DNA of 64,000 nucleotides from positions 18,662,001 through 18,726,000 of the forward strand of contig JBHGNT010000006.1 in NCBI GenBank assembly GCA_043228905.1, read 5' to 3'. The notes below the pieces were generated by a model, which worked only from the letters and a program-made list of their open reading frames with translations, was not told the origin of the DNA and searched no databases. This document shows positions 18,201 through 58,593 of the stretch, one piece after another. The DNA comes from Azolla caroliniana. Taxonomy: Eukaryota > Plantae > Polypodiophyta. Made by a program: the position numbers and the translations under genes. Every line of letters starts with the position of its first letter. Position 1 is the stretch's first letter.

Positions 18201-18342
18201 TTAGGTTTATTATTTATATAATTATATAATCAGAAAAATGAAGAAATTTCGAAGGAATCAGGAGTCGTACGTATTTCTTTCCCTTTTATTATTTTTTTCC
18301 TTTTCCTTTTTCTTTATAACCGTCTCACTTTCCCTCCCCCTC

Positions 18343-18373
18343 CCCCTACCCCTACCCCTAACCCTAACCCTAA
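18343..18373 (+). promoter_or_regulatory. CCCTA(A) telo-box-like repeats upstream of the kinase
   Basis: CCCCTACCCCTACCCCTAACCCTAACCCTAA in the pyrimidine-rich leader region. Confidence 0.35.
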
Positions 18374-18680
18374 TTTTCACCATCGCCTGCGCATAACGCT
18401 CTCCCCCCTACCTCCCCTTCTTCTTTGCTCCCTTATCTGCAGCATTTTCTCCTCCAATCCAATTTTAGACCCTAAATCTTTCTTCCCCTACAGCATCTCC
18501 CCCCCCGCTCCTCCTTACCATCGACCTAAAGAATCCTCCGCCCGCAGTCCTCTTCCTTCTTCGTTCTGCAGGTTTCTTGAAATCCATTTTCTTCTCATCG
18601 GAGCTTCCTTCCACAAACTTCCTTCCACATCTTTCTTCAATCTCCCTTTTCTTCATCCTTCCCTTTCCCTGCAAATTTTT

Positions 18681-19553
18681 ATGGAAAATCCTTACACGTT
18701 TGGACGACAAATCGGCGAAGGAGTAGACGGAGTTGTTCGCTTCGTCTTCGATCAGTCCTCAGGACAGAGATTCGCGTGCAAGTCCGTCAAGAAATCCAAC
18801 CCTGATGCTCTCTGCCATGTACGGGTTGAGATCGCCATGCTTGAGAAGCTTAGAGGCCATCCCAACATTCTGTTTCTGCACGATCACTTTGAAGACGAAG
18901 AGTACGTGCATGTCGTCTTGGATCTGTGCGAAGGTGGAGATCTGTGTGAGTTCGTGAGAGGGAAGGGCCGTCTTTCCGAGCTCGAGTCTGCACAGGCTAT
19001 GGCGACCATACTCAGGGCTGTTTTGTTCTGCCACGAGAGAGGTGTTTTCCACAGGGACCTCAAACCAGAGAATATACTCCTGCCTCGGAGAAACAGTGGT
19101 TATGGAGAGCTCAAGCTTGCAGATTTTGGTGCTTCTGCAGACTTGTCGAAGAGGAGATCTTTCACTGAGATGGAAGGGACCGCATGGTACCTTGCTCCCG
19201 AGGTTCTTGCAGGTAGCTATGACGAGAAAGCAGACATATGGAGCTTAGGAGTGATCCTTTACGCAATGCTGTGTGGATTCCTTCCTTTCGATGGAGATGG
19301 AACAGTAGAAATCTTCCAAGCCATTAAGAGAGGGAAGCTGGATCTGAAGTCGGAGCCATGGCCATCCATTTCTGAGGAAGCCAAGGATCTCCTCAAAGGC
19401 ATGCTTCAGAAAAATCCTTACAGGAGGATGAGGCTCAGAGATGTTTTGTTACATCCTTGGTTTAAGCACGTCTCGTCTGCAGAAGGTAGCGAGGGACCAT
19501 GGGGCAGCTTGAAGAAGCACGGAGCCTCGGAATCTGTTTCTGTAGGTGGATGA
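18681..19553 (+). CDS. Ser/Thr protein kinase of the CDPK/SnRK superfamily, kinase domain only (PPCK/PEPRK-like)
   Basis: Intact single-exon 290-aa ORF: GEGVDG, FACKS, HPNI, LCEGGDL, HRDLKPENIL, DFG, YLAPE, DIWSLGVILY, PWPSISEEAKDLL, HPW; no junction or EF-hand domain. Confidence 0.9.
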   Translation: MENPYTFGRQIGEGVDGVVRFVFDQSSGQRFACKSVKKSNPDALCHVRVEIAMLEKLRGHPNILFLHDHFEDEEYVHVVLDLCEGGDLCEFVRGKGRLSELESAQAMATILRAVLFCHERGVFHRDLKPENILLPRRNSGYGELKLADFGASADLSKRRSFTEMEGTAWYLAPEVLAGSYDEKADIWSLGVILYAMLCGFLPFDGDGTVEIFQAIKRGKLDLKSEPWPSISEEAKDLLKGMLQKNPYRRMRLRDVLLHPWFKHVSSAEGSEGPWGSLKKHGASESVSVGG

Positions 19554-28261: not shown

Positions 28262-30764
28262 TCTCGCCCTTGATGGAGGCGGGTGGTAAGGAGATGGAGA
28301 ATCAACAAGAAGCGATGAATATGATGATGATGATGATTAAGCGGATGCAAGAAGAGCAGCACACAATGTCAGAGATGAAATCGGCAGTAGTGCGGCTTGT
28401 GCAAAGAAACGGGGAATTCGACGGAAAGGATGTGTCACGCTATCTACATGACTACAAGACGGAGATGATGCGATGTGGGATACCGGAAGGATTGCAAGTG
28501 ATATCCTTCAGTCGGGTAGCCACGGATGAGTTACAAGAAAGAATCTTCAAGATACGGCAACAAAATCCAACATGGGAGTCCTTTGAAGAAGCTATACGAG
28601 ACGCATACGACTATCTAAGACCGAAGTAGACGAGGACATGGTCCACGAACGGCGGTCAACAGTGGGTGAAAAGCGGCCACCGACTTCCACTGAAGGAGAG
28701 CTTGATGCGGAAGGGTTCGGAGATGCATGAAAAGTCGCAAGTCGACATTGAAGGGGAGCTTAAAACCGAACCAAAGTCGAGGCCAACAAAAGACGAGGAG
28801 GAGGAAGATCGAGGACGAAAGGGTATCCCCACACTAGTTCCAGAAACTTTGGCGGTTGTGCCCGTGCACCAACCTGAGACCGGAGAGACGGAATGTGTCG
28901 GCGGAAAGGTGGAGGACCGGAAGGGCGACAAGGAAGACAAAGTAAATGAGCACGAACGAAGGGATTCCTTCACCATTGTTTCGGAGACTTCGGTAGTCGA
29001 GCCCGTGTGTCGACATAACACCGAAGATAAGGAAAGTGGCGGCAACGAAACGAAGGTCGAAGCCGATGCATACGAAGGAGAGATAGCCAAGGAGGTGGCT
29101 ATGGGTGAAACAACGGAGGACGATAATACCGTGGATTCCTATCCACTAATTCTAGAGACTTCGGCGGTTGTATTCGAGAACCAACGTGAGACCGGAGAGA
29201 CAGGAGGTGGCGGCAAGAAAGGTAAAGTCGGAAGCCGGTTCGGATGGAAGGTGATCCGGACGGGATTCCGATCCGAAAGAAAGCCAAACCGGGTGAAAGA
29301 GGATTCGACCGAAAGACGACCCGAAAGAAAGCCGAACCGGGCGAATGAGGATTCAACCGAAAGTCGACCCAAAAGAAAGCCGAACCGAAAGGAAGAGAAT
29401 TCGGCTGAAAGACGACACAAACGAAAGCCGAACCGGGCGAATGAGGATTCGGCCAAAAGACGACCCAAAAGAAAGCCGACCCGAAAAGGGGTCGACTCGA
29501 TCAAAACCGGTCGACTGAGTCTGACTTGGCCGAACGCGAATATGGATGGAAGCCGACCTAGCCGAAAGCCGATCGGACGAGACCGATCCGGAAAGAAGCT
29601 AATCCGACTCAAACGGAGGTTGGACCGGTTGAGGCTGGTGAAAACGAGGAAAAGAAAGCCAACCCGAAAGCGATAGATCGAAACCGGGCCGGAAGGAGAC
29701 CGACTCAATCAAAACCGAACAACCGATTCCGATTCGGCCGAATACGAATCCGATCGGAAGCCGATCAAACCGAAAGTTGATCGGACAAGAGCGATCCGGA
29801 AAAAAGTCAAGGTTGATGAAGACAAGAAAGAGGCCAGTAAAAGACACTACCACGAATGACAAGGGCCAAGAATATGACGAGAGAGAACAAAGAATATGGT
29901 GGATCGGATGGCGACAATGGTTCGGGTGGATAGAATGGGTCTACTCAAAATGGAGAGACAAAGTTGACATAGCGGGACAAACGGAGGATGAAGGGGAGAC
30001 AACGAGCATCGGCAACTTCGGCACATACCGGAGGATGTGCGGGTTCGGAGGGGGCGAGTGTCGTAGTGTATTCCACACACTACGTGAAAACCATAAAATA
30101 ACATATCCGATTTTAGATACATATAAATAGATAAATAATATATCAAAAGAATTTATCACGTGCATAGGGCAAGATTTGAACCATGCACCTCCACGTAGAT
30201 AAACCCCAACTTTACCATTGTAATAACTTATCTTTAGTGTTATAAATATAGATTTAACACGTATAAGACCTTTATTTACACATACCTTTATTAAAAGATA
30301 AAAATCATGTATTCTTTAGAGTGTGAATATTTTATTTACACGTGACATTAAAAGAGACTCATGCACATCTAGCGTGCACGAGCCCTATATTTAGAAAGTG
30401 ATAAAACATCACATGCACATTTAGTGTGCATGGACACTTTAAGCGAAAAAGCATGAAGCCATGCTTAGCCTCTTCCATCTTTATATAAGGAGGAGAAAAA
30501 TATGTATATGGTTGTTGATTAATATAGAAGAATTGATCAATCTAATATATTCGTGGGATTCACGAATTTTGCCATCTAAATTACTCTTATAATCTAAATA
30601 TTGTTTTAAAATACACTAAACTCGTGGGATTCACGAGATTACTATCTTACTTCTCTTCCTATTATTCATAACTAGCCTTAAGTTGTATTCCTCTTCCTCC
30701 TAGTCCAAAACCTCGGCGGTTCCCACCCGACTCACGCAACGATCCGGAGCCGAAGGGCTCGACA
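28262..30764 (+). mobile_element. Non-autonomous gypsy-related element B (5' LTR lost): gag-N fragment, repeat ORF, 3' LTR 30059-30764
   Basis: VVRLVQRNGEFDGKDVSRYL gag-N (28234-28629); ETSAV-repeat ORF 28666-29676; WWIGWRQWFGW motif; PPT; LTR TGTCGTAG...CTCGACA. Confidence 0.8.
30161..30228 (-). ncRNA. tRNA-like A/B-box module within LTR B
   Basis: Minus strand: TTACAATGGTAAAG...GAGGTGCATGGTTCAAATCTTGCCC, with a TTTT run ~15 nt downstream. Confidence 0.55.
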
Positions 30765-30846
30765 CCGTACCTAGGAGGAGTTCGAAGGTCGAATCCTAGA
30801 AAAATACGGGCTGGACGACGCGCTCCGGCTTTCGAAACGGGACTTC

Positions 30847-32622
30847 ATGGAGTGGGTGGAGTTCCCCGGCAAGGGAAGAAACGCGTCGGCACTCCTCCGG
30901 GAGTTTGAAGAACGCTTTGCGTGCCTTTCGGCGCTTGACCGAACCATTCTGGATACGAGCCGGGTCCTACTGTTCGTCAAGTCGGTGGACGAGCGGGACC
31001 GGGATCAAGTCGGCTCCTTGCTGGAAACCGAAGACGGGCTGACGACCGGTTGGGCTGCGGTTAAGAGAGTTTGTGGCCGTTTCGACAAACGGCGAGAATG
31101 GGCTGACAACGGCGCGGCTGGTGCGGGCTCTATCACAGCAAGGAGGCTTGAACCGGCACCGCAAGGGCAAAGGGAAGAAACCCGGGAATGGCTCGAAACC
31201 GGTCCGGCTTCGACCGGCATGGTCAGTGGCTCGTCCGGAGGAGCAGCGCTGGAGGAGTTGATGCGGGCGATAAAGGATCTCCAGATCGCCCAGACTCGAA
31301 GGGAAGGCGGCGAACCGGCTCGTGACCGACGGCCGATGGCAGGGAACAGGTGCATGTGGTGCGATGAGGTCGGCCACATCCGGAAGGACTGCGGCGATTT
31401 CGCAGAAGTGTTGAGGAACCGGGTGGTGTACCTGTGGGAAGGCCGGGTGCACGCCGGCGACACCAGAAGGGCCCTAAACCAAAACGACAGGCGAGGAGGA
31501 ATGAAGAGACTGATGGAAGAGGCAGCGGCCCGACACGTGGAGGCCATCCACTACTCGGCGTCGGCCGGCATTCGGGTCGGGGGCAGCGAGGCCCGAAAGG
31601 AGGGCAAAGACGGATTCTGGTCGGCAATGCTGGAAGGTCTTGCCGGCGCACGACTAAGGAAAGATGAAATGGACCGCGCTGAGAGACGGGTCCGGGAAAT
31701 AACCGGGTGGAGCGATCCGGTCGAGGAGAAGACGGGCTTCGTAGAAGCCGCTTGCCGGAACTACGAGGCTCTGGTAGAAGACAAACGAGTGGGGAAAACC
31801 GGAGCGGCCGGGCCCCCACAACGGTACGAGACCCGATTAGGGCAACGACGGAACGATGCCGGTGGGTCTAGCTCGCAAGATAACCCCAGGAAGGGCGGAT
31901 ACCGACTGGGGACGGAAATAGAAAGGACTACGGACCTACGAAAGGTCCTAGAGGAACGGATCCTCGACAGCAAGGTGGAGCTGTCATTGCGAGAGGTGCT
32001 AGGGATTGCCAAGAAGGAGTTCCACGACTCCATTGTGGGCCTGGTGAAACGGAAGAGGCTGTCGACGGAGACGGAACCGGAAAGACCGGTGGAGGTGCGG
32101 ACGACGCACATCGACGACATGGCGCTGGAAGGTGAGTGGGCGGAGAGCCACTATTCGAGGCCGCACTAGGCCCGAGCGACCACGGAGACCCCGGTAAAGA
32201 TCAGAGATGTTCAGGAACCAGTGGTGGCATTGGTGGACCACGGTTCGGAAATAAACCTGATGTCCATGGACTTCTATAAGAAGGGAAAGTGGCCGATCAA
32301 CACCAAGCACGGGTGGAAGATACGGGCGGCGACGCGCGCCACTAAGGAACTGCACGGGGCTTGCCCGAACGTGCGAGTCAAGATCGGCAACGTCGAGATT
32401 GACCATCACTTCTTCGTACAGGAGACGTCCTCGCATCCGGTCATATTAGGGGAACCATACATCACGGCGGCGAGAATGGAGACCAAGGTGCTAGACAACG
32501 GTTCGGCCTACGCGAGGGTCAAAAGCCAGGACGGGCGCCATTCGGTCCAATTTCTAACGGTGCGACCGAACCACGAGCGAAACTGCGAATCCCTCGGTGG
32601 CGAGAACCGGGAGGATTTTTAG
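30847..32622 (+). pseudogene. Element F gag-protease
   Basis: ORFs 30847-32169 and 32221-32622 are in the same frame, split by one TAG at a position that is Trp in element D. Confidence 0.85.
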
Positions 32623-32678
32623 AGAGGACTGCCAAGGCGTGGGGCCAAGACAGTCCGGACACTCGGGAAAGACCCCAC
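32613..32678 (+). other. Putative -1 ribosomal frameshift signal (G GAU UUU UAG plus pseudoknot), element F
   Basis: Heptamer GGATTTT, 6-nt spacer, stem GGACTG/CAGTCC, loop GTGGGG complementary to downstream CCCCAC; same architecture at 55098-55160. Confidence 0.75.
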
Positions 32679-35468
32679 GACTGTACGATAGAACCGAAAC
32701 CGAAGGAACCTTGTACGATAGGTAGGAAATTTTGCTTCTCCGACAACGGAGGGTGTATGATAGTCGGCATCGTTGGCCGAGAAAAGACAAGGGCGGAAGT
32801 GCAACTTCGAGCGTGCGGAGTTCTCGGCCCGGACGAGGAAATCAGCGGGGCCGTGGAGGCGGTCTCCTTCGACGACACCTTGGGGATGTTGAGGAAGGTT
32901 GCCGGAGAAGACCTTAACGAAGACCGGACGATACCGGTATGTTCCGAAGAGATGTACGAAGTCATCGCGAACTTCAGCCAGGGGCTCCGGTCGGATCGGA
33001 CGGCCCGAGTAAGCATGAAGTACAAGATTGTGGACCTGAAGGTAAGGCCAGTCGTGGCACCCTTACCGGAGGGCAGCGAGTCCCGAATCAGAGGGGTTGC
33101 GTCGGACCCCAGTTTACGAGATCCGGCCTGCATAGGACACACCTTCACCGACGGGACGCTCCGGGAGCTCAAGATCGGTGGGGGCGGGTTTCTACTGCCG
33201 GCAGAGGAAGACCGGTTTCGGAGAATGCTCGGAAGGCACGGGAAAGCCTTCGCATTCTCGCCGGAAGAGATCGGGTGCGTAGACCCGACAATCGTGGAGC
33301 CGATGGTGATATTCACGGTACCGCATGTGCCGTGGAATCTCAAGCCGATTCCAGTACCAAGAGCTCACATCCCGGAGTTGATGGAGCTACTGAGGCAAAA
33401 AGTCGATATGGGTATTCTCGAACCGTTGAGCGCGCCATACTCGAACCGATGGTTTACCGTACCAAAGAAAAACGGAACATTGCGCTTCATTCAGGACCTG
33501 CAGTCGGTCAACAGAGTGACCATTCGGAACGCAGGAATCAGACCGACCATAGACGAGTTCGCGGAGGCCTTCGCCGGAAGGTCGATTTACTCGGTCGGTG
33601 ATCTATACTCGGGGTACGACCAGTTCCAGCTAGCCGTGGAGAGCAGAGACATTACGACGATGCGAACTCCCCTCGGCCTAGTGCGAATGTGTACCCTGCC
33701 GCAAGGAGGGACCAACTCGGTGGCCCATATGGTGAATGCAATGAATAAGGTACTGAGGGATTGCATCCCGGACATCACCATGCCGTTTCTAGAAGACATC
33801 CCTATCAAAGGGTGCCGGGTGGAAGAGAAGGACGAGACACTCGGGCCGGACGGATGCCGGCGATTCGTGGCAACACACATCGACGACTGCGAGAAGGTGC
33901 TACAAAGGCTAGAGGATGCGAGGCTCACCTTTTCCGGGGAGAAATCGGCCTTTGGGCAATCAGAAATCCTGGTGGTCGGACACCTATGTGGACCATATGG
34001 CCGGAAGCCGTCTCCGGCAAAGGTAGAAGCCATCTCCGCGATGAAGACCGACTGTAGCTCGGTTACGGAAGTTCGGAGGTTCCTGGGGGCATGCGCGTTC
34101 TACCACATATGGATCCCGCATTACGCCCACGTTGCGGAGCCACTATACGGGTTGCTGAAAAAGGGGCGAAAATTCGAGTGGCGAGACGAGCACACGGAGT
34201 CGGTCCGGAAGCTGAAGGAAGCTCTTGTGGCAGCACCAGCGCTCCGGAAGGCTGTCTACGAGAAGGGTACCCCGGTATACATAACGGTGGATATGAGCCC
34301 AACCGGGATAGGATGGGTCGTCAACCAAAAAGACAAGGACGGCATTCGGTTCCCGATCCGATTCGGCGCGAAGGTCCTTAGTGAGCGACAGCGAGGGTAC
34401 GCCCAGGTTAAACGCGAACTCTGGGGTATCGTTTTGGTAGTAAAGGCCGACAAAGACTACCTGATCGGGACAGAAGTGGTTATCGAGACGGATTGCCTGC
34501 CGATTCTCGGCATGGTTTCCGGATGCGCGACACCGGACCTGGCGATGCTCCGGTGGATAGCGTACATCAAGTCCCTGGACCCGGAAATACGGCACATTTC
34601 CGGAAAGGACAACGCCATGGCCGACATGCTTTCGAGGGCGAGGTTTGATGACGAGGGCGGCATGGTTTCGGAGGACGAAGAAGTCGGCGTGGACTTCTTT
34701 GAGGCGGCGTACGTGACGACCGATGGGACGAGCACTCCGACACTTAACGACTTCGACGAGAGCAGGTACGACGGCGAGTGGCTCCAGATTGGTGGATTTT
34801 TGAGGACAATGACGCCGGATGCGTTATGGACGAAGGACGAGGCCAACCGGATCCGGAAGAAAGCTTACCGATTCTTTCTCTGGGACGGATACTTATGGAA
34901 GCACCCGAAGAAGAGGAACGACGTCCCGCTCCGGGTGGTGGCGATGAAGGAAGATCAGGAGGAGCTGCTGATGGCTTACCACCACAGCCCTTGGGCTGGA
35001 CACCGTGGAACGTGGGCCACGTTCGAGAAGATAAAGGGGAAGTACTGGTGGCCGGGACTGTACCGGGTCGTGCATCGGTTCGTGACAACTTGCGAGAGCT
35101 GTCAGATGCACTCCGTAGTCCGACATCGGGACGAGCTTCACCCTACGTACCCTCCGACCATCCACTTCAAATGGATGGTAGACCTGGTGACGATGCCGAT
35201 GGGAGTAGGACAGATGCGGTATCTAGTCCTGGCTCGGGAAGATCTGACGAACCAGGTAGAAGGCCGAGCCCTTCAGAACAAGACGACCGCGGCCGTATGT
35301 CGGTTCCTGATCGAGGACATGATATGCCGGTACGGGTGCGTCGGGAAGATCGTGGCTGATCGCGGGGAGTTGGACGCCGAAGACCCCGAGGAGCTGTTCG
35401 ACCGGCTAGGAGTCAAGCTCTCGCTTACCACTGCGTACAATCCGGAGGCGAATGGGAAGGTGGAGCGC

Positions 35469-38400
35469 TGTCGTGAAGATCCGTCACTACGCGCGGATCG
35501 TGAGGCGGAACCGCCGGGGTTCTGGACCAGAAGGATTTAGAGTCGATACAAGCTTTGGCGAGAAAGTACTTAAGATAGATTGGGAAAGAGAGAAGTTGAG
35601 ATTACACGATCAATTTGATAACGAATTTCTTCCTCTTAATTTTCATAAAAAAAAACCGTGTTTTTTCTCCTCCCCCTTCCCTCTTTTATAGATGCTCTCA
35701 TGCATATGATGCATGTGAGGGTACAAGACATGCATAAATTGCATGTTTGCCATTTGGCGCTTATGTATTACATGTGGTGCATGATAACCATGTCACTCAT
35801 TTTAGTTCTCATGTATGAGAATTTACATGTAAAAGTACAAAAATATAATTTCAATTAAATAGCATGGCTTAATGGTAAGCCATTTGACTCCTAACTTGGA
35901 GGTGCAAGGTTCGAATCCTTACTTGCCCTCCTTGTATATGTAAATATGTATATATATTTATATATTTATTTATCTAGTCGCCGTACGATTCATGTTGGCT
36001 AGTGTGACCTTCTCGAACTTCTTCGCTAGCTCTTCAATGATGTCGTCATCAATCTTCTTTTCTTCCATATTACTTTGTCTCGGCGGCTCAGCTACTTTCG
36101 GCGATCTTGCTTTCTCCGTGGTAGTCGGTCCCGTCAAGTCGGTGTCATCAACCCATTGGCGACGCTTGTCGAGCCTATTGCATGCCCGCTTCACCGCGAT
36201 CTAGTCCGCTACGAGCCCATTTGCTTGGGTATCATCTTCGAGAAGAGTCCCCAACTCCCGTCTATCCTTTATGTCCACGGCCTTCAAGAAGTACAAAGTC
36301 TTGTCCTCTTCAAGCAACACTTGGTCCGTATTGGGGAGACGACTAAACATCTGGTCGAATTCGTCGTACACCCTCGAGACGCTCATCTTCTTATTCTTCT
36401 TCTCTATCCACTTCATCAGGGCATGTCGAGTCATCCTCGTTGAGTCTTCATCCTCGTTGTGCCTCGGACACGTCCCTTTGATTCATCTCCCTCTTATATG
36501 CATCAAGGAACTTCGTAACGTTCCTTCGATCGAATTGGCCCTCGAGCTCTACGACACGATCGACAGCCTTCTCCACGCTCGCGTCGTTGTCCCGAGATCT
36601 CATCATTTGCTGGACGATTAGCATCATCCTTTCGAGCTCTCCTGCTTGGTTGCTTGAGGACGCCATCTCCAAGTATTAATCTCGACTTGATCTTTTCTAC
36701 CGCCTCTTTCACGTCGGGTTCACCACTTGATTATGTCGTGAAGATCCGTCACTACGCGCGGATCGTGAGGCGGAACCGCCGGGGTTCTGGACCAGAAGGA
36801 TTTAGAGTCGATACAAGCTTTGGCGAGAAAGTACTTAAGATAGATTGGGAAAGAGAGAAGTTGAGATTACACGATCAATTTGATAACGAATTTCTTCCTC
36901 TTAATTTTCATAAAAAAAAACCGTGTTTTTTCTCCTCCCCCTTCCCTCTTTTATAGATGCTCTCATGCATATGATGCATGTGAGGGTACAAGACATGCAT
37001 AAATTGCATGTTTGCCATTTGGCGCTTATGTATTACATGTGGTGCATGATAACCATGTCACTCATTTTAGTTCTCATGTATGAGAATTTACATGTAAAAG
37101 TACAAAAATATAATTTCAATTAAATAGCATGGCTTAATGGTAAGCCATTTGACTCCTAACTTGGAGGTGCAAGGTTCGAATCCTTACTTGCCCTCCTTGT
37201 ATATGTAAATATGTATATATATTTATATATTTATTTATCTAGTCGCCGTACGATTCATGTTGGCTAGTGTGACCTTCTCGAACTTCTTCGCTAGCTCTTC
37301 AATGATGTCGTCATCAATCTTCTTTTCTTCCATATTACTTTGTCTCGGCGGCTCAGCTACTTTCGGCGATCTTGCTTTCTCCGTGGTAGTCGGTCCCGTC
37401 AAGTCGGTGTCATCAACCCATTGGCGACGCTTGTCGAGCCTATTGCATGCCCGCTTCACCGCGATCTAGTCCGCTACGAGCCCATTTGCTTGGGTATCAT
37501 CTTCGAGAAGAGTCCCCAACTCCCGTCTATCCTTTATGTCCACGGCCTTCAAGAAGTACAAAGTCTTGTCCTCTTCAAGCAACACTTGGTCCGTATTGGG
37601 GAGACGACTAAACATCTGGTCGAATTCGTCGTACACCCTCGAGACGCTCATCTTCTTATTCTTCTTCTCTATCCACTTCATCAGGGCATGTCGAGTCATC
37701 CTCGTTGAGTCTTCATCCTCGTTGTGCCTCGGACACGTCCCTTTGATTCATCTCCCTCTTATATGCATCAAGGAACTTCGTAACGTTCCTTCGATCGAAT
37801 TGGCCCTCGAGCTCTACGACACGATCGACAGCCTTCTCCACGCTCGCGTCGTTGTCCCGAGATCTCATCATTTGCTGGACGATTAGCATCATCCTTTCGA
37901 GCTCTCCTGCTTGGTTGCTTGAGGACGCCATCTCCAAGTATTAATCTCTACTTGATCTTTTCTACCGCCTCTTTCACGTCGGGTTCACCACTTGATTATG
38001 TCGTGAAGATCCGTCACTACGCGCGGATCGTGAGGCGGAACCGCCGGGGTTCTGGACCAGAAGGATTTAGAGTCGATACAAGCTTTGGCGAGAAAGTACT
38101 TAAGATAGATTGGGAAAGAGAGAAGTTGAGATTACACGATCAATTTGATAACGAATTTCTTCCTCTTAATTTTCATAAAAAAAAACCGTGTTTTTTCTCC
38201 TCCCCCTTCCCTCTTTTATAGATGCTCTCATGCATATGATGCATGTGAGGGTACAAGACATGCATAAATTGCATGTTTGCCATTTGGCGCTTATGTATTA
38301 CATGTGGTGCATGATAACCATGTCACTCATTTTAGTTCTCATGTATGAGAATTTACATGTAAAAGTACAAAAATATAATTTCAATTAAATAGCATGGCTT

Positions 38401-39037
38401 AATGGTAAGCTATTTGACTCCTAACTTGGAGGTGCAAGGTTCGAATCCTTACTTGCCCTCCTTGTATATGTAAATATGTATATATATTTATATATTTATT
38501 TATCTAGTCGCCGGATGCCGGTTCGCCGGATGCCGTCGCCGGATACCAGTGCCACCGCCGGATGTCGTCGGTTACCGGTGCCGGATGCCGTCGGATCACC
38601 GTCGCCGTATTGCCGTCGGATGCCGCCGGATACCGGTGCCGCCGCCGGTCCGGTTTTGGTTGGCCAAAACCCTTTACGAGTAGCTAGGCCACCTCCACTC
38701 TTAGTTCAAGTTACCTTGAACTCTCTATGCTCCACACATAGAGATAAAGATAATATCTTTTGCTCCACCTTATATATGATGAGAGCTGTATTTGTCGTGC
38801 CTATGTGGGATATCTCACAATTTTCTCCTTTCCTTTTACAAACTTTATACCCTCATATCTTGACATTTAGTTGTCCGTTTCTCGTGTAATAAAGTGCATT
38901 CGAAACCTCCATAATTTTGTACTTAGATATTAAATCTATTTAAAATGTTATCTTCACAATTATTGTACTACGTGATTCATACTCGATTTCGTACGTTTTA
39001 TAGGATTTTCACACTATTGCTGAAAATCTTCACGACA
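35469..39037 (-). mobile_element. Element C: deleted, tandemly duplicated derivative of family D with one full and two half LTRs
   Basis: Full LTR 37999-39037; 1265-bp units starting at 35469 and 36734, each half LTR + gag fragment + PBS; 4-bp TSD GCGC/ACGC. Confidence 0.92.
35861..35928 (+). ncRNA. tRNA-like A/B-box module within LTR C (further copies at 37126-37193 and 38391-38458)
   Basis: TGGCTTAATGGTAAGCC (A box, D-stem GGCTT/AAGCC), loop CTCCTAA, AAGG-TTCGAAT-CCTT (consensus B box GGTTCGAATCC). Confidence 0.75.
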
Positions 39038-40395
39038 ACGCGGACACGGACCGATCGTCAAGGCGTTAGTTCGGGCATGCGGGGGGCAAGTCGGGAACTG
39101 GCTGTGGCTGCTGCCTTACGGGTTGTGGGCTGACCGAACTACGCATAGTTCGGTAACCGGATTCATGCCGGCAGAGCTCATGTTTGGGCAGAAGCCGGTC
39201 ATGCCGATGGAACGTACGATCTCCTCGTGGGCAACTGTGGACTGGAGAGACGAGATGAGCCGGGAGGAACTGCTGGCGGCGCGTATACGACAGCTCCAAC
39301 GAAGACCGGAGGACGTGGAGCAGGCTGCGGAAAAGCTTCGGGAAGCAAGGATGAGGAACAAAGCCCGGTTCGACCGAACGCACCAGCTCCGACCGAAGAA
39401 GATTGAGGAAGGCGACTGGGTGCTAGTCTACGACAGCAACCTCGACAACCAGCACCGAGCGACATGGAAGTTCGCAAGAAGGTGGTTCGGGCCTTACGTG
39501 GTACAAAGCGCCAATGACAACGGGACGTACCATCTGGCGGAACTCGACGGCACGAGAGTGGCGATACCGGTAGCTGGGAAGCGGATCAAAGCGTTCAAGA
39601 AGCGTCACGACGACGAGCCGGATCCGGATAACCTGGACCGGGACGACGAACGATCTGAAACCGAGGAAGGACCGACGGGCGGGGAATGAAGGCTGAACCG
39701 GTTTTCTCCGTCCCAACTCAATTTGGCGCATGCCGGTGGATGCGCGGTTAGGTGGGGGCGGATGTCGTGAAGAAAACCGTCCACAAGCGGAATCGGTGCG
39801 CCAGAGCATAGGAACCGGCTCTTCACGCACGTACGCCTTGTGTCGAACATAGGAGAGAATTAGGGACATGGGAGATCCTAGGTAGGTAGATTCGGTAGGT
39901 AGAAAGTTAATAGGAAACGGCTCCCTTCTTGCCTATAAAAGGAGGGAGACGAGGAGGAAGGGATCGCGAAGAGTCAAGGACGAAGTGCTGTCGGGCTGTC
40001 GGTCGAAGGCTTCTCTCTCTTCCATACTCCATAGCTTCTTTCTGTGCAGGTTTCGGGAGGCTCGCGCTGCTCTAAGGAATGCTTGAGTGCTTCCGGCAGC
40101 ACCTCCAACCTACACCTTTCTTTCTGTGCGTTTACGAACAGGCATCGACATCTGTTCGCCGGCCTGTTCGATTGTAACCGACTTCGTGTTCTTGTTGTTG
40201 TTGTCTTTGTTAATACATACATACATTCGTGTCTCTCTGTGTCGCTGTCCCACTCGCGTCTTTGTGTCGAAGGGCCGTGTCCCTGTGAATCCACGCTCGC
40301 ACATAGTGGGTCTCTTCTCCTTTCTCTCTTGCTCTTCGGTACAGGACCCCCGAAGTCCCGCCTCATTCCACGCATCCGCGAGGAATACCTCGACA

Positions 40396-41438: not shown

Positions 41439-44400
41439 TGTCGTGAAGATTTTCGTCCATAGGCGGAAAACCGAGCGAAGCAAGCAAACCCGCGATGTGC
41501 AACGTTGCACATCACCATGTTGTATTTCTATTTATCGATAGTGATAAGTATGGTGCTAGAAATGCACCTTAGGATTTGTAAAGTGTAGAGGTGATGTGCT
41601 TTTGCGCGCACATCCACGTGAGAGAGAGAGATAGGTACATAGTAGTTCGTGTAGAGGTGGGAGTTAAGACCCATCCTTCCCACCTCCCCTAAAATCAAGG
41701 GAAATATCCCCATTGATTGAAAGGGGATATTTTGTAGCACCCCTTTATGTAACGGTCTTCCCTCCTTGTGCTATAAAGGGAGAGGAAGAGCACCATTGTG
41801 GGGGTTGCCTTATTTTGAGTGTGAGTGAGGTATACCATTTCGTTTTAGGGTTAGGGTTTCTTTTCTTCTTCGTCGGATTAGGGTTTCGGGTTTATCATAG
41901 TCGTTTGGTGCGGCCTACGCGGCCGCCATTTTGTAATCGGTTTCGGTTCTAATATATCTTGTTGAGCATTTGGCCTCCATCTTCCTCTTGTTCATTCTCC
42001 CTCTTCTTGTGCTAAGCTCCATTCCGAAGTCCTATTCCTTCTCCCCTTCTCCTTAGTCCGAGACCCCCGTGGTTCCGCCCTTCTCCACGCACGCGCGTAA
42101 CAACGCGACATCTTTGGTGAACCCGACGTGAAGGGCGGCAAGGGAGAAAGAGATGGAGGAAGGCTTCGACTTCGAGGAGATGATGACAAAGATCTTGACG
42201 GACGCCGGACGGAAGAGGGCGAGGCGAGAGGCGGCTCAACAAGCGGTCGAAAGGGTGGTCCGTCTAGTCGGCCGGTTCGATGGGAAGGAGGTCCCAAAAT
42301 TTTTGAGAGCCTACGATGCGGAAATGACGGGGATGGGCGTGGACGAAGCGACGAGGCTAGAGTTCTTTCGTCGAGCGGCGGCCGCATCAAAGTACGAGGA
42401 GGTCAAGGAGCTCCAAGAAGCTCACGAATCGTGGGAGTCCTTTGAAGGGGCTCTAATGGAGGCATACGGGTGCGCGGAATCGGAGGTAAGAGGTCGGCGA
42501 GAGTTCGATCGGTGGATGGCGTCGGCGAGGCGCCATCGGAGCGCAATAGAGGCATTCCGAGAGTTCGAGCGTCGTTTCTCTCAACTCTCGGAGTGGGAAC
42601 GAAGATCGGTGGGGGCGGACAAAGTCCTCCTATTTTTGGAGACGGTCCATCATGAGGAGAGGATGGACATCACGTTCGAGCTTCAAGACGATTATGGGGC
42701 GCATGGTCTCACCGAGGAGTGGCCCGAAGTGGAATGGGTGTGTCGGCAACATGAGGCGAGGCGGTCGGCCACAACACGGCCCGCGAGCGGGGGAGAAGAG
42801 AGAGCGACGACCAACTACGCCATGCCGCCGGACGAGAGCTCATCGCGAACCGGTTTGGAGGGGCTCGACCTACAAGCGCTAATACGGGAGGCGTGCGGGC
42901 TCGTAATGGCGAAAATCGAAGCCGAAGAATGGCTTATTGCGGGGTCGGGCCCGAGCGGATCGGAGGACGCGGAGGAAGGAGCTTCCTCACACATGGAGGA
43001 CGGGGCCTATGCGGAGGCCGAAAGAGAATGGTACATCGGTACCACGGGAGAGGGTGCGGAGCGAGCCGCCCTCTCGACATGGGGGGAAAGAACGACCGAG
43101 GACGAGGTCGGGGACGGTGAGGCGGCGATCGCCGATTCGAGCGGACATGGCGGATTCGGGACATGGTGGCCCGAATCATCGAGTACGGAGGAGACAAGCG
43201 GCGGTACCGCAACCTTCCACGCACCGGTTCAAGAGACCCCGGCGGCCGGCCCGAGCGCCCGCGTGAGACCGAGGGAAAAGCATGGTGGCGGCGGCAAGGC
43301 GGGCAACCGAGACAACGGTAAGGAGACCGCGGAAGAGGCGGCCGCAAGCATAACCGATGCTTGCATATACGGAGGCGGGGTAGCCACGGACAACGACGTC
43401 CGAGCGGAGGTGGCTACGGACATTACATCGACGAGCGGCGGTCCCGCGACCTTACACGCGTCATTCCGGGAGATCACGGCGGCCGGCCCGAGTGCCCGCG
43501 TAAGACCTATGGTGAAAGGCGGTGGCTGTGGCAAGGCGGGCGACCACGGCGTCGACACGAGAGAAGGTGCGGAGCAAGCGACCGTCTCATCTCGGGGAAA
43601 AAGAACGGCCATGGACGAGGCCGATATCTACGGAGCGATGGACGCCACTTCGAGAGTGGGCGGAAGTTTCGGGACGCGGTTGCCCGAAACGTTCTACGAG
43701 GATTTCGCGAGCATACTCGAGGCTTGCGAAATGGAGGAGGAAGAGGAGACGAGCGTCGGTGTCGCGACCTTCCACACACCGGCCCTAGAGGCTTCGGCGG
43801 TCGGCCCAAGTGCCGGCACGAGACCTGGAGCTACGGACGGTGGCGGCGGCAAGGCGGACAACCGAGATAAGGACGAGACCGGCGAAGAAGAGGCGGCGGC
43901 AAGCATACTCGATGCTTGCGAAACCGAAGACGGGGTAGCCACGGACGACGATGTCCGAATGGAGGTGGCTACGGACGAGAGGAGTGGTGGTGTCGCGACC
44001 TTCCACACACCGGTCCTAGAGACTCCGGCACCCGGCCCGAGAGCCGGCGAGAGGCCTAGAGTGACGGACGGTGGCGGCGGCAAGGCGTGCAACCGAAACG
44101 ACGACGACATGGGAGAGGGTGCGGAGCGAGCAACCCTCTCGTCTTGCGGCGAATGGACGGCCAAGGATGAGGCCGGTGACTACAAAGCGGAGAGCGCCAC
44201 TTCGAAAGTGGGCGGAAGATTCGGGGCACGGCGGCCCAAAACATCGAGCGGAGAGGAGGCGAGCGGTGGTGCCGCGACCTTCCACACACCGGCCCTAGAG
44301 GCTTCGGCGGTCGGCCCGAGTGCCGGCACGAGACCTAGAACGACGGGCGGTGGCGGCGGCAAGGCGGGCAAACAAAATGATGCGGAGAACGGCGAAGAAG

Positions 44401-47044
44401 AGGTGGTGGCAAGCATACTAGAGGCTTACGGAATCGGAGATGGGGGAGCCGCGGACAACGACGTCCGAACGAAAGCGGCTACGGAGACAACAAGCGGCGG
44501 TGCCGGGTCCTTACCCACACCAATCCTAGAGGCTCCAATGGCTGGCCCAAGTGCCGGCATGAGGCTTAGTACGACGGGAGGTGACGGCGGCAAGGCGGGC
44601 AACGGAATCGAGAAGGAAGATTGGAGCGGACGGAGGCAAGACCCCTTGACGTCGGGGCCGGAGACTTCGGCGGTTGTGCTCGAATGCCAACGTGAGACCG
44701 GAGAGATGGGCGGTGACCGTGAGGAGGTGAGGCCCGGAGAGAACGCATACGAAGACGAGTATGCGGGGCCCGGAATGGGCGTATACGGTGGGTCCGACGG
44801 AGAGGACCGGAGCGGAAACGAGGAGAGAGTCGGGAACCGACCCGACCGGAATACGGCACGGAAGAAGAAGAGAGTAAGGGCCGGCGAACCGGGCCCAAAC
44901 CGAAGGAAGCCGGCGAGACCGATTGGCCGGTTACGGTTACGGTTACGATGGGAGCCGGTAAGCGCGAGATGGAGGCTAGCCGGGCACGACGACCATGGTT
45001 CGGGGGAAAAACGGAAACAAACGAGACCCTCCATACCCACTCTAGAGACTACGGCGGTTGCGGATCAACATAAGACCGGAGAAACGGCGGGTGGCGGCGA
45101 GGAGTCGGAGACCGGAGCGTACGAGGTTACCGGAACGGATATCCGGTACGAGATGGTGGACGGGTGGGTCCAAGACGGCGAGCCCGTGTCGGAACGGGCT
45201 ACGGCGACAAAGGAGGAGAAGACCGACACGGAGGTCGGGTCTACGGCGGAAGAGCGAGACGAGATGCATGCAATACGGCCGATGGAGGGCCAAGACACAA
45301 GCATGCCTACGAAGGAGCCACATCGAGCAACCGAAGATGACGGTCGGATCACGCCTTCGAGAGGCGAATACGAGGAGGAAGGCGGCGACGACGAGACCCG
45401 GCACGATGCTAGGGAAGATTGGTGGGAAGAGGTGGCCTACGGAGAGGCTAAGACCGGCGGCCACGAAGATAAGACCCGAGAGGGATCCTCCACACCGGCT
45501 ATAGAGACTCCGGCGATCGGCGCGAGTGCCGACGTGAGACCAAGAGTGGCGGACGGTGGCGGCGAGGGGACGAAGGCCACAACGGATGAAGGCACCGAGA
45601 GAGGCATACGGGAGGTCGCGGTGAACGAAGATGTATGCGCCCAAAGGAACGAACACGACATCACGAAGGATGTGTGCGGTCGAGCGGGCCAAGGGGGCCA
45701 AGAGGGTGTTCCTCCGAGCGAAACGGAGGTCGGGGAAGAAGGGTACCTTTCCGAAAGGGTACGCGAAGAGGAGCGGAATGCGAAACGTGCAATACGGCCG
45801 CATGAGGGCCAAGCAACGAGCACGGGAACGATGGTATGCTCTACGGCGAGAGAGCACGGCAAGCAAGGGGAAGACGAAAAATGCGTGATGGGGTCATCGA
45901 AGGACCGAAGCACGAGCACGCATTCGGAGGACGACACCGACGTACGGGGAAAGCCTACGGAAGGCAAGCGCGGAGCGAGAAGAGTCGGCACGACGAGGTG
46001 CGCGGCACAAAAAAGGCGGATCCGGAGGATATGCGAGGCGGACAAAGGGTCGGCAACGGCGTTCGGGAGGACCGAACGGGGAGGAAAGCGCGGGCATCGG
46101 ATATGGCAGTCCGAGTGTAGTCGGTGGTTCGAGGAAACACGGTGGATGTGGCGGATCGGATGGAGCCGACGGTTCGAGACCATTCGGCGGAGATGGTGGG
46201 CCGGAAGGCGACGGTGGTTCGTGTGGACGGGGTGGACTTGCTCGAAGTGGAAGACGAAGCCGGGCAAGCCCACGAGGTTGTCAAGGGCTCGGTTGGCCGC
46301 CTTGGCCGAAAATCTCGCGTTTTGTTCCCCTTTTGGCACATACCGGTGGATGTGCGGTTAGGTGGGGGCGGATGTCGTGAAGATTTTCGTCCATAGGCGG
46401 AAAACCGAGCGAAGCAAGCAAACCCGCGATGTGCAACGTTGCACATCACCATGTTGTATTTCTATTTATCGATAGTGATAAGTATGGTGCTAGAAATGCA
46501 CCTTAGGATTTGTAAAGTGTAGAGGTGATGTGCTTTTGCGCGCACATCCACGTGAGAGAGAGAGATAGGTACATAGTAGTTCGTGTAGAGGTGGGAGTTA
46601 AGACCCATCCTTCCCACCTCCCCTAAAATCAAGGGAAATATCCCCATTGATTGAAAGGGGATATTTTGTAGCACCCCTTTATGTAACGGTCTTCCCTCCT
46701 TGTGCTATAAAGGGAGAGGAAGAGCACCATTGTGGGGGTTGCCTTATTTTGAGTGTGAGTGAGGTATACCATTTCGTTTTAGGGTTAGGGTTTCTTTTCT
46801 TCTTCGTCGGATTAGGGTTTCGGGTTTATCATAGTCGTTTGGTGCGGCCTACGCGGCCGCCATTTTGTAATCGGTTTCGGTTCTAATATATCTTGTTGAG
46901 CATTTGGCCTCCATCTTCCTCTTGTTCATTCTCCCTCTTCTTGTGCTAAGCTCCATTCCGAAGTCCTATTCCTTCTCCCCTTCTCCTTAGTCCGAGACCC
47001 CCGTGGTTCCGCCATTCTCCACGCACGCGCGTAACAACGCGACA
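41439..47044 (+). mobile_element. Element E: complete, young, pol-less LTR retroelement
   Basis: Near-identical 672-bp LTRs (41439-42110, 46373-47044); perfect 4-bp TSD CCGG; PBS TGGTGAACCCGACGTGAA at 42115-42132; PPT at ~46360-46372. Confidence 0.95.
42153..46361 (+). CDS. 1402-aa Gag-N / acidic repeat / Trp-Arg-tail protein of element E
   Basis: Single intact ORF filling the internal region; first ~200 aa align by eye with D gag (GRFDGKEVPKFLRAYDAEM vs GQLDGRNVTKFLDAYKREM); no zinc knuckle, PR, RT or INT motifs. Confidence 0.85.
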   Translation: MEEGFDFEEMMTKILTDAGRKRARREAAQQAVERVVRLVGRFDGKEVPKFLRAYDAEMTGMGVDEATRLEFFRRAAAASKYEEVKELQEAHESWESFEGALMEAYGCAESEVRGRREFDRWMASARRHRSAIEAFREFERRFSQLSEWERRSVGADKVLLFLETVHHEERMDITFELQDDYGAHGLTEEWPEVEWVCRQHEARRSATTRPASGGEERATTNYAMPPDESSSRTGLEGLDLQALIREACGLVMAKIEAEEWLIAGSGPSGSEDAEEGASSHMEDGAYAEAEREWYIGTTGEGAERAALSTWGERTTEDEVGDGEAAIADSSGHGGFGTWWPESSSTEETSGGTATFHAPVQETPAAGPSARVRPREKHGGGGKAGNRDNGKETAEEAAASITDACIYGGGVATDNDVRAEVATDITSTSGGPATLHASFREITAAGPSARVRPMVKGGGCGKAGDHGVDTREGAEQATVSSRGKRTAMDEADIYGAMDATSRVGGSFGTRLPETFYEDFASILEACEMEEEEETSVGVATFHTPALEASAVGPSAGTRPGATDGGGGKADNRDKDETGEEEAAASILDACETEDGVATDDDVRMEVATDERSGGVATFHTPVLETPAPGPRAGERPRVTDGGGGKACNRNDDDMGEGAERATLSSCGEWTAKDEAGDYKAESATSKVGGRFGARRPKTSSGEEASGGAATFHTPALEASAVGPSAGTRPRTTGGGGGKAGKQNDAENGEEEVVASILEAYGIGDGGAADNDVRTKAATETTSGGAGSLPTPILEAPMAGPSAGMRLSTTGGDGGKAGNGIEKEDWSGRRQDPLTSGPETSAVVLECQRETGEMGGDREEVRPGENAYEDEYAGPGMGVYGGSDGEDRSGNEERVGNRPDRNTARKKKRVRAGEPGPNRRKPARPIGRLRLRLRWEPVSARWRLAGHDDHGSGEKRKQTRPSIPTLETTAVADQHKTGETAGGGEESETGAYEVTGTDIRYEMVDGWVQDGEPVSERATATKEEKTDTEVGSTAEERDEMHAIRPMEGQDTSMPTKEPHRATEDDGRITPSRGEYEEEGGDDETRHDAREDWWEEVAYGEAKTGGHEDKTREGSSTPAIETPAIGASADVRPRVADGGGEGTKATTDEGTERGIREVAVNEDVCAQRNEHDITKDVCGRAGQGGQEGVPPSETEVGEEGYLSERVREEERNAKRAIRPHEGQATSTGTMVCSTAREHGKQGEDEKCVMGSSKDRSTSTHSEDDTDVRGKPTEGKRGARRVGTTRCAAQKRRIRRICEADKGSATAFGRTERGGKRGHRIWQSECSRWFEETRWMWRIGWSRRFETIRRRWWAGRRRWFVWTGWTCSKWKTKPGKPTRLSRARLAALAENLAFCSPFGTYRWMCG

Positions 47045-52852: not shown

Positions 52853-52870
52853 TGGTGAACCCGACGTGAA
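52853..52870 (+). other. Primer binding site complementary to tRNA-Trp 3' end
   Basis: TGGTGAACCCGACGTGAA is the reverse complement of TTCACGTCGGGTTCACCA, the plant cytosolic tRNA-Trp(CCA) 3' end as I recall it; same PBS in C and E. Confidence 0.8.
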
Positions 52871-52905: not shown

Positions 52906-55107
52906 TTGGAGATGCCGTCCTCAAGCAACCAAGCAGGAGAGCTCGAAAGGATGATGCTAATCGTCGAGCAAATGATGAGATCTCGGGACAACGACGCGAG
53001 CGTGGAGAAGGCTGTCGATCGTGTCGTAGAGCTCGAGGGCCAACTCGATGGAAGGAACGTTACGAAGTTCCTTGATGCATATAAGAGGGAGATGAATCAA
53101 AGGGACGTGTCCGAGGCACGTCAAATCGCAAGCTTCAAGAGAGTTGTCGCCAACAACATCCAAAGACGCGTCATCGAGCTTCAAGAAGGAAAGACAACAT
53201 GGTCCGAGTTCGAGAAAACGATACTAGCGGAGTTCGTGACTGAAGACTCAACGAGGATGACTTGACATGCCCTGATGAAGTGGATAGAGAAGAAGAATAA
53301 GAAGATGAGCGTCTCGAGGGTGTATGACGAATTCGACCAGATGTTTAGTCGTCTCCCCAATACGGACCAAGTGTTGCTTGAAGAGGACAAGACTTTCTAC
53401 TTCTTGAAGGCCGTGGACATAAAGGATAGACGGGAGTTGGGGACTCTTCTCGAAGATGATACCCAAGCAAATGGGCTCGTAGCGGACTAGATCGCGGTGA
53501 AGCGGGCATGCAATAGGCTTGACAAGCGTCGCCAATGGGTTGATGACACCGACTTGATGGGACCGACTACCACGGAGAAAGCAAGATCGCCGAAAGTAGC
53601 TGAGCCGCCGAGACAAAGTAACATGGAAGAAAAGAAGATTGATGACGACATCATTGAAGAGCTAGCGAAGAAGTTCGAGAAGGTCACGCTAGCCAACATG
53701 AATCGTCGGGGCCCTAAAGGAAAAGAACCCTTTAGATGCGTGTGGTGCGATAGCATGGACCACATGAGAAGGGATTGTGCGAGCCTTCGAGAGGCGATTC
53801 GACAAAATATCGTATACATAGAGGACAACATGATCTGCTCAAGCGAGACTAGAAGACCCCTACGGGTGAATTTCGGAAGAGGAGGAATGAAGAGATCTAT
53901 GGAGGATGCCGATGCGACTCATGTGGATGCGATGCACTATGCTGCGTCGGCCGGAATAAGAGTCGGGAAAGACAAGACTGAAGCTGCTAGAGCGGGAACA
54001 AAGTTTTGGACTTCCGTTCTCGAATATGAGAAGAAGGGAAAAATCACATCGAACGAGGTAGAGCTTGCGGACCGAAGCGTGCAAAGCATAACCGGGTGGT
54101 CGGATCCGGTGGACGACAACACCATACTTGCAGAGGTGATGTGCGACAACCACGAGGTGTTCGTCGAAGAAAAGAGAAAGAGAATAGAAAAGCAAGGGCC
54201 ATAAAAAAGACATGAAACAAGGAACGTGAAAAAGAAGGACGATGTGGAGACGAGTCGACCTTTACAAACGGAGGAACGAGAATCAAGCCGAAAAGGGGAG
54301 CCGAGCATACGAGTTGAAGAAACGGTTCGGCCCGTGAAGGTTGGTGTCGAAGACCCCGCTCGGAGGACAAGGACCATACCTACCTATAAGCTAAGGTCGG
54401 ACATAGAGTAGACGACGGACGTAAAGAAGATTCTCGAAGAACGAGTTCTTGATAGCCATGTAACTTTGTCCTTGAGGGAATTGCTTGGCATTACGAAGGA
54501 GTTCCATGACACGATCGTGGACCTTGTAAAGAGAAAGAGACAACAATCGGACGAGGAAGAAGAGAAGCCGCAGAAAGAAAAAACGAATGCCATAACGATG
54601 GCAAGAGACGAAATCGATGAAGATATGGTGGACAGCCACTACACTTGACCTCATTGGGCACGAGCGACAACGGAGACGCCGGTGAAGATCGGGGAGAAGA
54701 AAGAGACTGTCGTAGCCTTGATCGACCACGGCTCGGAGATCAACCTCATGTCAACCGACTTCTATAAAAAGGGAAGATGGCCAATTAATACAAACCACGG
54801 ATGGAAGATTCGCGCGGCAACAAAGTCTACGGAGGACTTGTACGGAGCTTGTCCCAATGTCAAAATCACGATCGGGGATGTGGAGATGGATCAACACTTT
54901 TTCGTACAAGAATCGGCATCGCATCCTGTCATCCTAGGGCAACCTTATATCACATCATCTCGGATGGAGACCAAAGTGTTCGATAATGGAGCAGCCTTCG
55001 CACGAATAAAGAGTCTTGACAACCAAAGATCGGTCCAATTCCTAACAGTGCGAGCCCATCATGAAAGGAATAGAGATAGTCTCGGAGGCGAATCCTCGGA
55101 TTTTTAG
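52906..55107 (+). pseudogene. Element D gag-protease
   Basis: In-frame ORF pieces split by stops; CVWCDSMDHMRRDC knuckle; LIDHGSEIN protease. Confidence 0.88.
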
Positions 55108-55160
55108 AGCGGACTATTGAAGCATGGGGCACAAATAGTCCGAGCAATCACAAGACCCCA
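55098..55160 (+). other. Putative -1 ribosomal frameshift signal, element D
   Basis: GGATTTT-TAG, stem GGACTATT/AATAGTCC, loop TGGGG pairs with CCCCA; -1 frame open into pol. Confidence 0.75.
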
Positions 55161-55172
55161 CAAGAAAGAAGA

Positions 55173-58100: not shown

Positions 58101-58593
58101 GATTATGCCCATCGAAAGAACGATCGCCTCATGGGTAGCGATACCGTGGGGGAACGAGATGAGCCGAGAAGAGTTATTAGCGGTGCGGATAAGGCAACTT
58201 GAAAGAAGACTTGAAGATTTAGAAAAAGCGCGAAAGATGATGAAGGCAGCCCGAGTAAAGAACATAGTTCGGTTCGACAACACGCATCGACTTCGTACCA
58301 AGAAGATTGAAGAAGGGGATTGGGTTTTGGTTTACGACAACACCCTTGACAATCAACATAGTACAACAAGGAAGTTCGCAAGAAGATGGTTCGGGCCGTA
58401 TGTGGTGACAAGTGCCAACGATAATGCCACATACCACCTTGCGGAACTAGACGGATCAAGGTTGGCCGTACCCATTGCGGGGAAAAGAGTAAAGCTTTTC
58501 AAGAAAAGACAAGAAAAGGATCCTGACCTCGATTACCTCGACGATGAACATAATAGGCCGGATGAAAATGAAGACATGGAGGAATCTAATTGA
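55173..58593 (+). pseudogene. Element D pol (RT FLDD, RNase H, integrase)
   Basis: ORFs 55173-57482, 57412-58011 and 58027-58593, colinear with element F pol. Confidence 0.9.

Follow-up and report, generated by a model that had tools for sequence, protein, structure and literature searches.

A probable -1 frameshift signal after the protease of Azolla LTR retrotransposons, and a sister family whose pol lies in the +1/-2 frame

How does a retrotransposon make its reverse transcriptase and integrase if they are not encoded in the same frame as Gag and protease? The stretch of Azolla caroliniana DNA that we analyzed (the window, 64 kb) raises this question twice. It carries two Ty3/gypsy copies, here called F and D, that have decayed, and in both of them gag-protease ends with G GAT TTT TAG (32613-32622 in F and 55098-55107 in D) and pol is in the -1 frame, just as the first-pass annotation had described. 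That annotation also proposed that Gag and protease (Gag-PR) are made in bulk and that reverse transcriptase, RNase H, and integrase (RT-RH-INT) are made by -1 frameshifting. Our results support this interpretation, in which the shift itself is a prediction. The features of the two copies are as follows.

F copy:
30775-32622, + strand: gag-protease frame, a DUF4100 region followed by the protease (32170-32619)
32613-32619, + strand: slippery heptamer G_GAT_TTT, in register with the protease frame
32613-35467, + strand: pol in the -1 frame, with a linker of about 135 codons and then RT, RNase H, and integrase; interrupted at 35467
32620-32622, + strand: TAG that closes Gag-PR and is the first half of the 6-nt spacer (32620-32625)
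32626-32631, + strand: 5' arm of predicted pseudoknot stem 1, GGACTG
32638-32644, + strand: 5' arm of predicted stem 2, CGTGGGG, inside the loop
32651-32656, + strand: 3' arm of predicted stem 1, CAGTCC
32673-32679, + strand: 3' arm of predicted stem 2, CCCCACG
39039-39762, + strand: remainder of the integrase and polypurine tract, beyond a nested insertion
D copy:
52853-52870, + strand: primer-binding site, complementary to the 3' end of tRNA-Trp
53045-55107, + strand: gag-protease region, with the protease at 54649-55104
55098-55104, + strand: slippery heptamer G_GAT_TTT
55098-58512, + strand: pol region, with predicted entry by way of the -1 frame; this copy has a stop at 57480
55105-55107, + strand: TAG that closes Gag-PR
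55110-55142, + strand: predicted stem 1, 55110-55118 with 55134-55142 (z -4.63)
55156-55160, + strand: 3' arm of predicted stem 2, CCCCA

The open reading frames of pol are 32403-35540 in F and 55080-57482 in D, both in the -1 frame relative to the protease. According to Pfam, RT and RNase H lie 3' of the junction in both copies, and integrase does so in F; the aspartyl-protease matches that precede the two junctions are weak (E = 0.0045 and 0.0012) and below the curated cut-offs. The 3' LTR of F begins at about 39763. Both copies are broken outside of the junction. The 5' part of gag in F is cut off by an inserted family-E LTR, a TGA at 32167 breaks its gag-protease frame, and it also carries insertions in gag and integrase. 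In D, gag-protease is interrupted by stops at 54202, 54409, and 54646. So the evidence had to be sought in relatives of these copies.

At the junction itself, the stem that was reported 6 nt past the heptamer is there, with its compensatory change (GGACTG/CAGTCC in F and GGACTA/TAGTCC in D), and the D stem can gain one C-G pair, in which case the spacer is 5 nt. The proposed pairing partners, TGGGG in the loop and CCCCA downstream, are also found in both copies; in D, stem 1 is predicted to enclose the TGGGG arm (55125-55129). The statement that the surrounding sequence has diverged holds on one side only. Over the 300 nt downstream, F and D are 51.1% identical (shuffled sequences have a mean of 47.3 and a maximum of 51.1), but upstream, the last 300 nt of the protease are 67% identical. 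From the heptamer to stem 1, the identity is 75%.

The junction and its pseudoknot across families

The pattern of heptamer, TGGGG, and CCCCA has 3,621 matches in the 523-Mb genome, versus 1 match for the reversed control. We surveyed 282 loci whose protease end could be scored, or 239 after de-duplication; using divergent homologues as queries added further families to the set. In Azolla's own genome, the de-duplicated loci of the -1 type belong to family F (97), D (43), E (28), G (12), or others (4), and the -1 frame is open for at least 100 codons from the junction in 150 of these 184 loci, although the loci are the best matches to intact queries and the tallies lean towards intact copies. 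The other loci had no such frame (24), a +1 frame (2), pol in frame (3), or no motif that we could find (5). Among loci from metagenomes, 14 of 21 have pol in the -1 frame; that scan used one protein query and mostly reached D-like elements. Many copies of F-type gag-protease in the genome are a single open frame of about 726 codons.

Intact copies do not carry gag and pol in a single frame. Against the 3,621 out-of-frame matches, there are 36 matches with six Ts, of which, by our reading, 6 are true one-T insertions and the rest are substitutions in the stop codon. In the three insertion copies that we examined, the protease frame does continue into pol with no intervening stop. We also noticed single copies whose slippery run is one T longer or shorter (L236, L237, L241, and L206), due either to slippage by reverse transcriptase or to assembly errors.

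The layout extends beyond this genome. An element on an outside contig, with 59% identity in the protease, has the same heptamer, then TGA, and a -1 pol that is open to the end of the contig; its stem has another sequence (z -5.02) and its second pairing is GGGGA/TCCCC. Contigs from prokaryote genomes gave two matches, of which one was useful. These two (L315 and L316) are a plant-type retroelement on short contigs that are labelled as a cyanobacterial MAG and a Streptomyces assembly, and their filing under prokaryotes is probably contamination. The viral contigs that we searched contained no relative.

Among 120 homologous proteins in the databases, whose named sources include Physcomitrium, Riccia, and Adiantum, 64 end with Asp-Phe and then a stop, 27 end five residues past (D/G)F, 16 run on, and 6 are truncated. 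For L139, which is a DNA example of the five-residue type, we found G GAT TTT, the -1 frame, and a knot of other sequence. Of the more distant representatives, the C terminus could be scored for 34 of 112 (9 DF, 7 PL, and 18 other). The run-on proteins are all gene models, 13 from Physcomitrium and 3 from Riccia, and their joins are unlike one another, which suggests predicted introns. The models that join the protease to pol or to other sequence, at varying points past the junction, include P0001, P0002, P0061, P0070, P0071, P0073, P0075, P0082, P0098, and P0104 from Physcomitrium and P0077, P0089, and P0096 from Riccia. Their joins are likely to be predicted introns that bridge the frameshift. 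Separately, in L260, L261, and L236, an open frame of 325 codons overlaps the RT of family F in another sense frame; this may reflect only codon use that is rich in G+C.

An H-type pseudoknot, with a stem 1 and a stem 2, is predicted in all 15 of the family representatives. We scored pseudoknots by their summed helix stacking energies, excluding loop terms. Compared with 40 shuffles each, 13 representatives beat all of their shuffles and 2 beat 39. When we scanned the rest of the same element, other positions scored equally well at 10 of 932 in F, 2 of 1,075 in D, 0 of 1,125 in the sister family H (described below), and 15 of 693 in L315. Simple nested folding is less uniform: the 66-nt fold is ordinary in F (z -1.48), where the CCCCA arm could instead be taken up by a local hairpin, and the corresponding z is 0.12 for L139, -3.66 for D, and -3.26 for H. 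Rfam has no match within 32500-32800 at E values up to 5.

Comparison of these families indicates that both stems are kept as RNA. In a MAFFT alignment, stem 1 is 90% paired, while structures that are slid along the alignment drop to 18-42%. Six of its nine pairs have two-sided changes, which was matched by 6 of 500 shuffles and by none of the slid controls (at most 1 pair); the distant row L139 provides part of these changes. None of the 500 shuffles reaches the covariation score of stem 1, but kinship alone can beat such shuffles without any structure. The arms of stem 2 also co-vary between families, as TGGGG/CCCCA, TGAGGG/CCCTCA, or GGCGGG/CCCGCC. Furthermore, the distal arm of stem 2 lies in pol codon phase 0 in F and H, phase 1 in D and E, and phase 2 in G, L139, and L134. 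Because it is found in all three phases, its conservation goes beyond a constraint on the protein, so it is conserved as RNA. The frames, the heptamer, the stop, and the pairing of both stems as RNA recur across the families, so the survey that had been suggested as a check on the first two copies came out in their favor.

How pol is reached in the -1 families

We are confident, though short of certain, that the explanation is programmed -1 frameshifting after the protease, at G_GAU_UUU and with the aid of the predicted pseudoknot. The frame of Gag and protease stops directly past the heptamer, and RT, RNase H, and integrase are in the -1 frame. Most ribosomes would terminate there and yield Gag-PR. 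A minority would stall at the H-type pseudoknot 5-6 nt downstream and slip back by one base on the heptamer, so that tRNA-Asp and tRNA-Phe would re-pair one base back and translation would continue to give Gag-PR-RT-RH-INT. The ratio of Gag (with protease) to the enzymes would thereby be set high.

Other explanations need to be weighed. Pol could be expressed by splicing, as in Ogre, and in H the CAG|G could double as an acceptor, or AG|GT as a donor. The H site is indeed a U-rich stretch that ends in CAG|GT, and Physcomitrium gene models exit the gag frame near "DFGE." But the junctions of F and D have no GT. In the -1 families, pol has an open frame that starts at the heptamer and covers a linker of 130 codons, and in H it is open from a point ahead of the stop. 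Also, the knot is strongest in H, where it is retained with compensatory changes, and those H copies in which TAG replaces CAG, which would keep an acceptor while blocking a shift, are old. We consider splicing to be improbable. Conserved RNA structures in retroelements often have roles in packaging, dimerization, or termination-reinitiation, so the structure could be real and pol could be translated from its own AUG. The linker does contain methionines, but their positions are not conserved (the first is at codon 48 of pol in F and codon 60 in D), and the knot follows the conserved, in-register slippery heptamer and the gag stop with a constant spacing of 5-6 nt. It strikes us as even less probable than splicing.

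The remaining alternative is that the out-of-frame layout was a mutation in a founder that was copied in trans, with the motif being conserved for its encoded residues alone (DF, WG, SP, and PH). Both of the copies in the window are dead, and Trp-Gly and Ser-Pro do recur in the pol of F, D, and E. Nevertheless, the layout is common to five families in the genome and to outside contigs, and it is found in copies whose LTR pairs are 99.4-100% identical. The pairing is kept in G, H, and L139 despite the loss of Trp-Gly, and the distal arm occupies all three codon phases across the families. These observations largely refute the founder explanation, and we give it hardly any credence.

How does the proposed signal compare to known ones? 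Its layout resembles that of Rous sarcoma virus, as the alpharetroviral protease is located in gag: in both cases the protease is made with Gag, and RT and integrase would need the shift. The elements studied here are Ty3/gypsy, lack env, and have another heptamer, so the likeness is one of layout, not of descent. The gag-pol shift of Rous sarcoma virus is a -1 shift with a pseudoknot (PMC5009743). The closest match for the site itself is in plant RNA viruses, as had been suggested. G_GAU_UUU closely 5' of a stop is a documented shift site in these viruses, for instance G_GAU_UUU_UGG_UAG in RNA 2 of pea enation mosaic virus, and sites of the G_GA type are also found in umbraviruses and dianthoviruses (PMC5009743). 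The elements have in common with them the heptamer, the nearby 3' stop, a spacer of 5-6 nt (spacers of 5-9 nt are typical of -1 frameshift signals), a 3' structure, and an enzyme ORF in the -1 frame (PMC5009743). They differ in being LTR retrotransposons of a plant nucleus and in having a compact, local H-type knot, where the viruses rely on long-range pairing (PMC5009743).

Among LTR retrotransposons, Ogre and Retand also have two ORFs with the break past the protease (GAG-PROT, then RT-RH-INT), but their ORFs are separated by an intron or a stop in Ogre and by a stop in Retand, while here the frames overlap (PMC6317226). Tcn1 and Selgy have two overlapping ORFs, but GAG overlaps PROT-RT-RH-INT, so the break comes before the protease (PMC6317226). 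The REXdb table lists no lineage with an overlapping-frame break past the protease (PMC6317226, Additional file 5).

In viruses, -1 frameshifting that is driven by a pseudoknot is textbook material, and the mechanism is of a known kind. Its use past the protease in a clade of plant LTR retrotransposons is apparently new, as is the frame switch in H that we describe next: a literature search, mostly of papers that do not require a subscription, turned up no description of either signal. The -1 signal would account for the frameshifted appearance of thousands of copies and for the doubtful introns that gene models have there.

Family H, in which pol lies in the +1/-2 frame

One sister family, H, has a gag-protease that ends with CAG GTT TTT GAC TAG, while its pol occupies the +1/-2 frame. 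This was the frame in 23 of 34 H loci and the -1 frame was seen in none (examples of H loci are L150-L154, L156-L160, and L244-L251). The H junction pattern has 102 matches in the genome, and 31 of 32 scored loci contain AG_GTT_TTT. H is recently active and is not a dead founder: of eight full-length copies, five have uninterrupted frames of 739 and 1,181 codons, and six have LTR pairs that are 99.5-100% identical. On contigs from two other studies (X1 and X3), which are probably DNA, the H junction aligns without gaps at about 95% identity and the slippery site is unchanged; there are four changes in the knot region, and both stems stay paired.

The predicted knot of H has a stem 1 of 10-11 bp and a compensatory change of stem 2 to TGAGGG/CCCTCA. 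The five-U run is 5 nt from the GG core of the stem, as in the -1 families, and the reading of the pol frame is in register with theirs. The U run and the knot have not moved relative to the pol frame, but the gag frame of H reads the U run one base later, as AG_GUU_UUU. Because only the gag frame moved, a -2 slip in H would end where the -1 slip of its sisters ends. The slip site of H is 5 nt from the conserved GG core, versus 6 nt in the -1 families. When the first predicted pair is taken as the end point, H has a spacer of 5 nt and the -1 families have one of 5-6 nt (5 in D and E).

We lean towards the view that the pol of H is reached by -2 frameshifting that is driven by the pseudoknot. 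By the same modest preference, an essential -1 shift that is stimulated by a pseudoknot would have turned into a -2 shift within one clade as the gag frame moved by one base along the U run. There are precedents for both the site and the switch. AG_GUU_UUU is the -2/-1 site for nsp2TF in arteriviruses, where it works without RNA structure and requires proteins; H shares the site but has a predicted pseudoknot and would need the shift to make essential enzymes (PMC7618472). In reporters, -1 frameshifting gives way to -2 when the spacer is shortened by 1-2 nt, as shown for U6A in mammalian systems, which may be compared to the H site being one base nearer to the conserved stem core than in its -1 sisters (PMC3458567). 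If this view is correct, then H is a natural, replicating case of a spacer-dependent -1/-2 switch that has so far been shown in reporters. Few natural -2 frameshifts are known, so H would be the rarer case; others are in phage Mu and Trichomonas vaginalis virus 1 (PMC5009743). As -1 and -2 cassettes that have a knot in common, in elements that moved recently, the two kinds of signal would also allow a test of the mRNA-tension model of shift direction on natural sequences and with plant ribosomes.

The frame alone does not distinguish -2 from +1, so H could instead use +1 frameshifting, at UUU_G or at the stop codon for example, with the knot still acting as the stimulator. A +1 frame is mostly reached by a +1 shift. 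[quoted passage not shown] Also, perfect re-pairing at +1 would be possible on UUU_UAC, which is found in a minority of H copies, and the spacer of H to the first predicted pair equals that of D and E. But most H copies have UUU_GAC, which would re-pair poorly at +1. Furthermore, the first G of stem 1 is also part of the stop codon of H, and stem 1 would therefore be open by the time that this stop is decoded. A slip of -2, on the other hand, would re-pair perfectly in the A site and would preserve the Phe-Leu-x-Arg-Thr register of the -1 families, and it would occur at what is the -2/-1 site of PRRSV (PMC7618472). Overall, we think that +1 frameshifting is unlikely, yet it deserves to be kept in mind.

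Splicing in H seems less likely again. Among the 100 H junction matches listed, TAG replaces CAG in 12. We examined six of these copies (L297-L300, L306, and L307): their identity to young H is no higher than 87-91% over the main matched stretch, they have no intact frames, and several of them lie in local duplications that are 98.5-99.3% identical. We also considered an upstream T_GAT_TTT as the shift site of H and rejected it, as the -1 frame closes after 24 codons and P0031/P0249 lack T_GAT_TTT.

Gln-Val-Phe-x-stop is the ending of P0030, a protein with 94% identity to H, and of P0031/P0249 (72-77%). In a quick tree of the protease, these proteins group with H (SH-aLRT 98), and this group is part of a clade of 29 rows (96) in which the other members terminate at DF or shortly past it. 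H is thus nested among families that are of the -1 type or end in DF, so it is the derived state. If the frame switch of H is real, then it is old, given that Gag-PR proteins with just 72% identity have the Gln-Val-Phe-x-stop end in common. As a separate observation, P0113 from Riccia has a Gag-PR that ends with Arg-Val-Phe-Pro-Asp-Ser-Leu-Leu-stop, and its Val-Phe could mark a second, independent site of the H type.

Identity of the elements and other features of the window

The elements are likely to belong to Phygy, a non-chromovirus lineage, as judged by the following traits. Full-length copies measure 7.2-8.0 kb in those cases in which both LTRs could be resolved, and the LTRs begin with TG and end with CA. 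In 20 elements, all of the flanks that we read are NCGN, and the 4-bp NCGN target duplication is identical at both ends in 10, has one mismatch in 1, and was read at one end only in 9. The primer-binding site, TGGTGAACCCGACGTGA, matches the 3' end of genes that are tRNA-Trp according to ARAGORN at 3 of 3 loci. The full pol of one H copy and one F copy has only RT, RNase H, and integrase domains in Pfam, with no chromodomain and no extra RNase H. Homologues from Physcomitrium have about 61-65% identity in the protease. The 4-bp NCGN duplication, the tRNA-Trp primer site, the absence of extra domains, the Physcomitrium homologues, and a coding region that fills the element are all shared with Phygy as described, but some of our elements are smaller than the 7.7-10 kb reported for Phygy (PMC6317226). 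REXdb gives the ORF organization of Phygy as "ND" (Neumann et al. 2019, PMC6317226, Additional file 5).

The window also contains a young element without pol, at 41439-47044, with 672-bp LTRs that are 99.85% identical and a CCGG target duplication. It has a tRNA-Trp primer site at 42115 and one repetitive ORF of 1,409 codons (42132-46361) with no match in Pfam; remnants of a related ORF are found at 2-1177 and 28630-29676. This element is probably a non-autonomous partner of these families. The insertion into the integrase of F (35463-39041) consists of inverted pieces of a D-family LTR and gag in a tandem unit of 1,265 bp, whose copies are 99.8-99.9% identical, with two reverse primer sites at 36715 and 37980. 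Finally, amid the repeats there is an uninterrupted protein-kinase ORF at 18222-19553 (Pkinase, E = 6e-70), which is either a host gene or a retrocopy.
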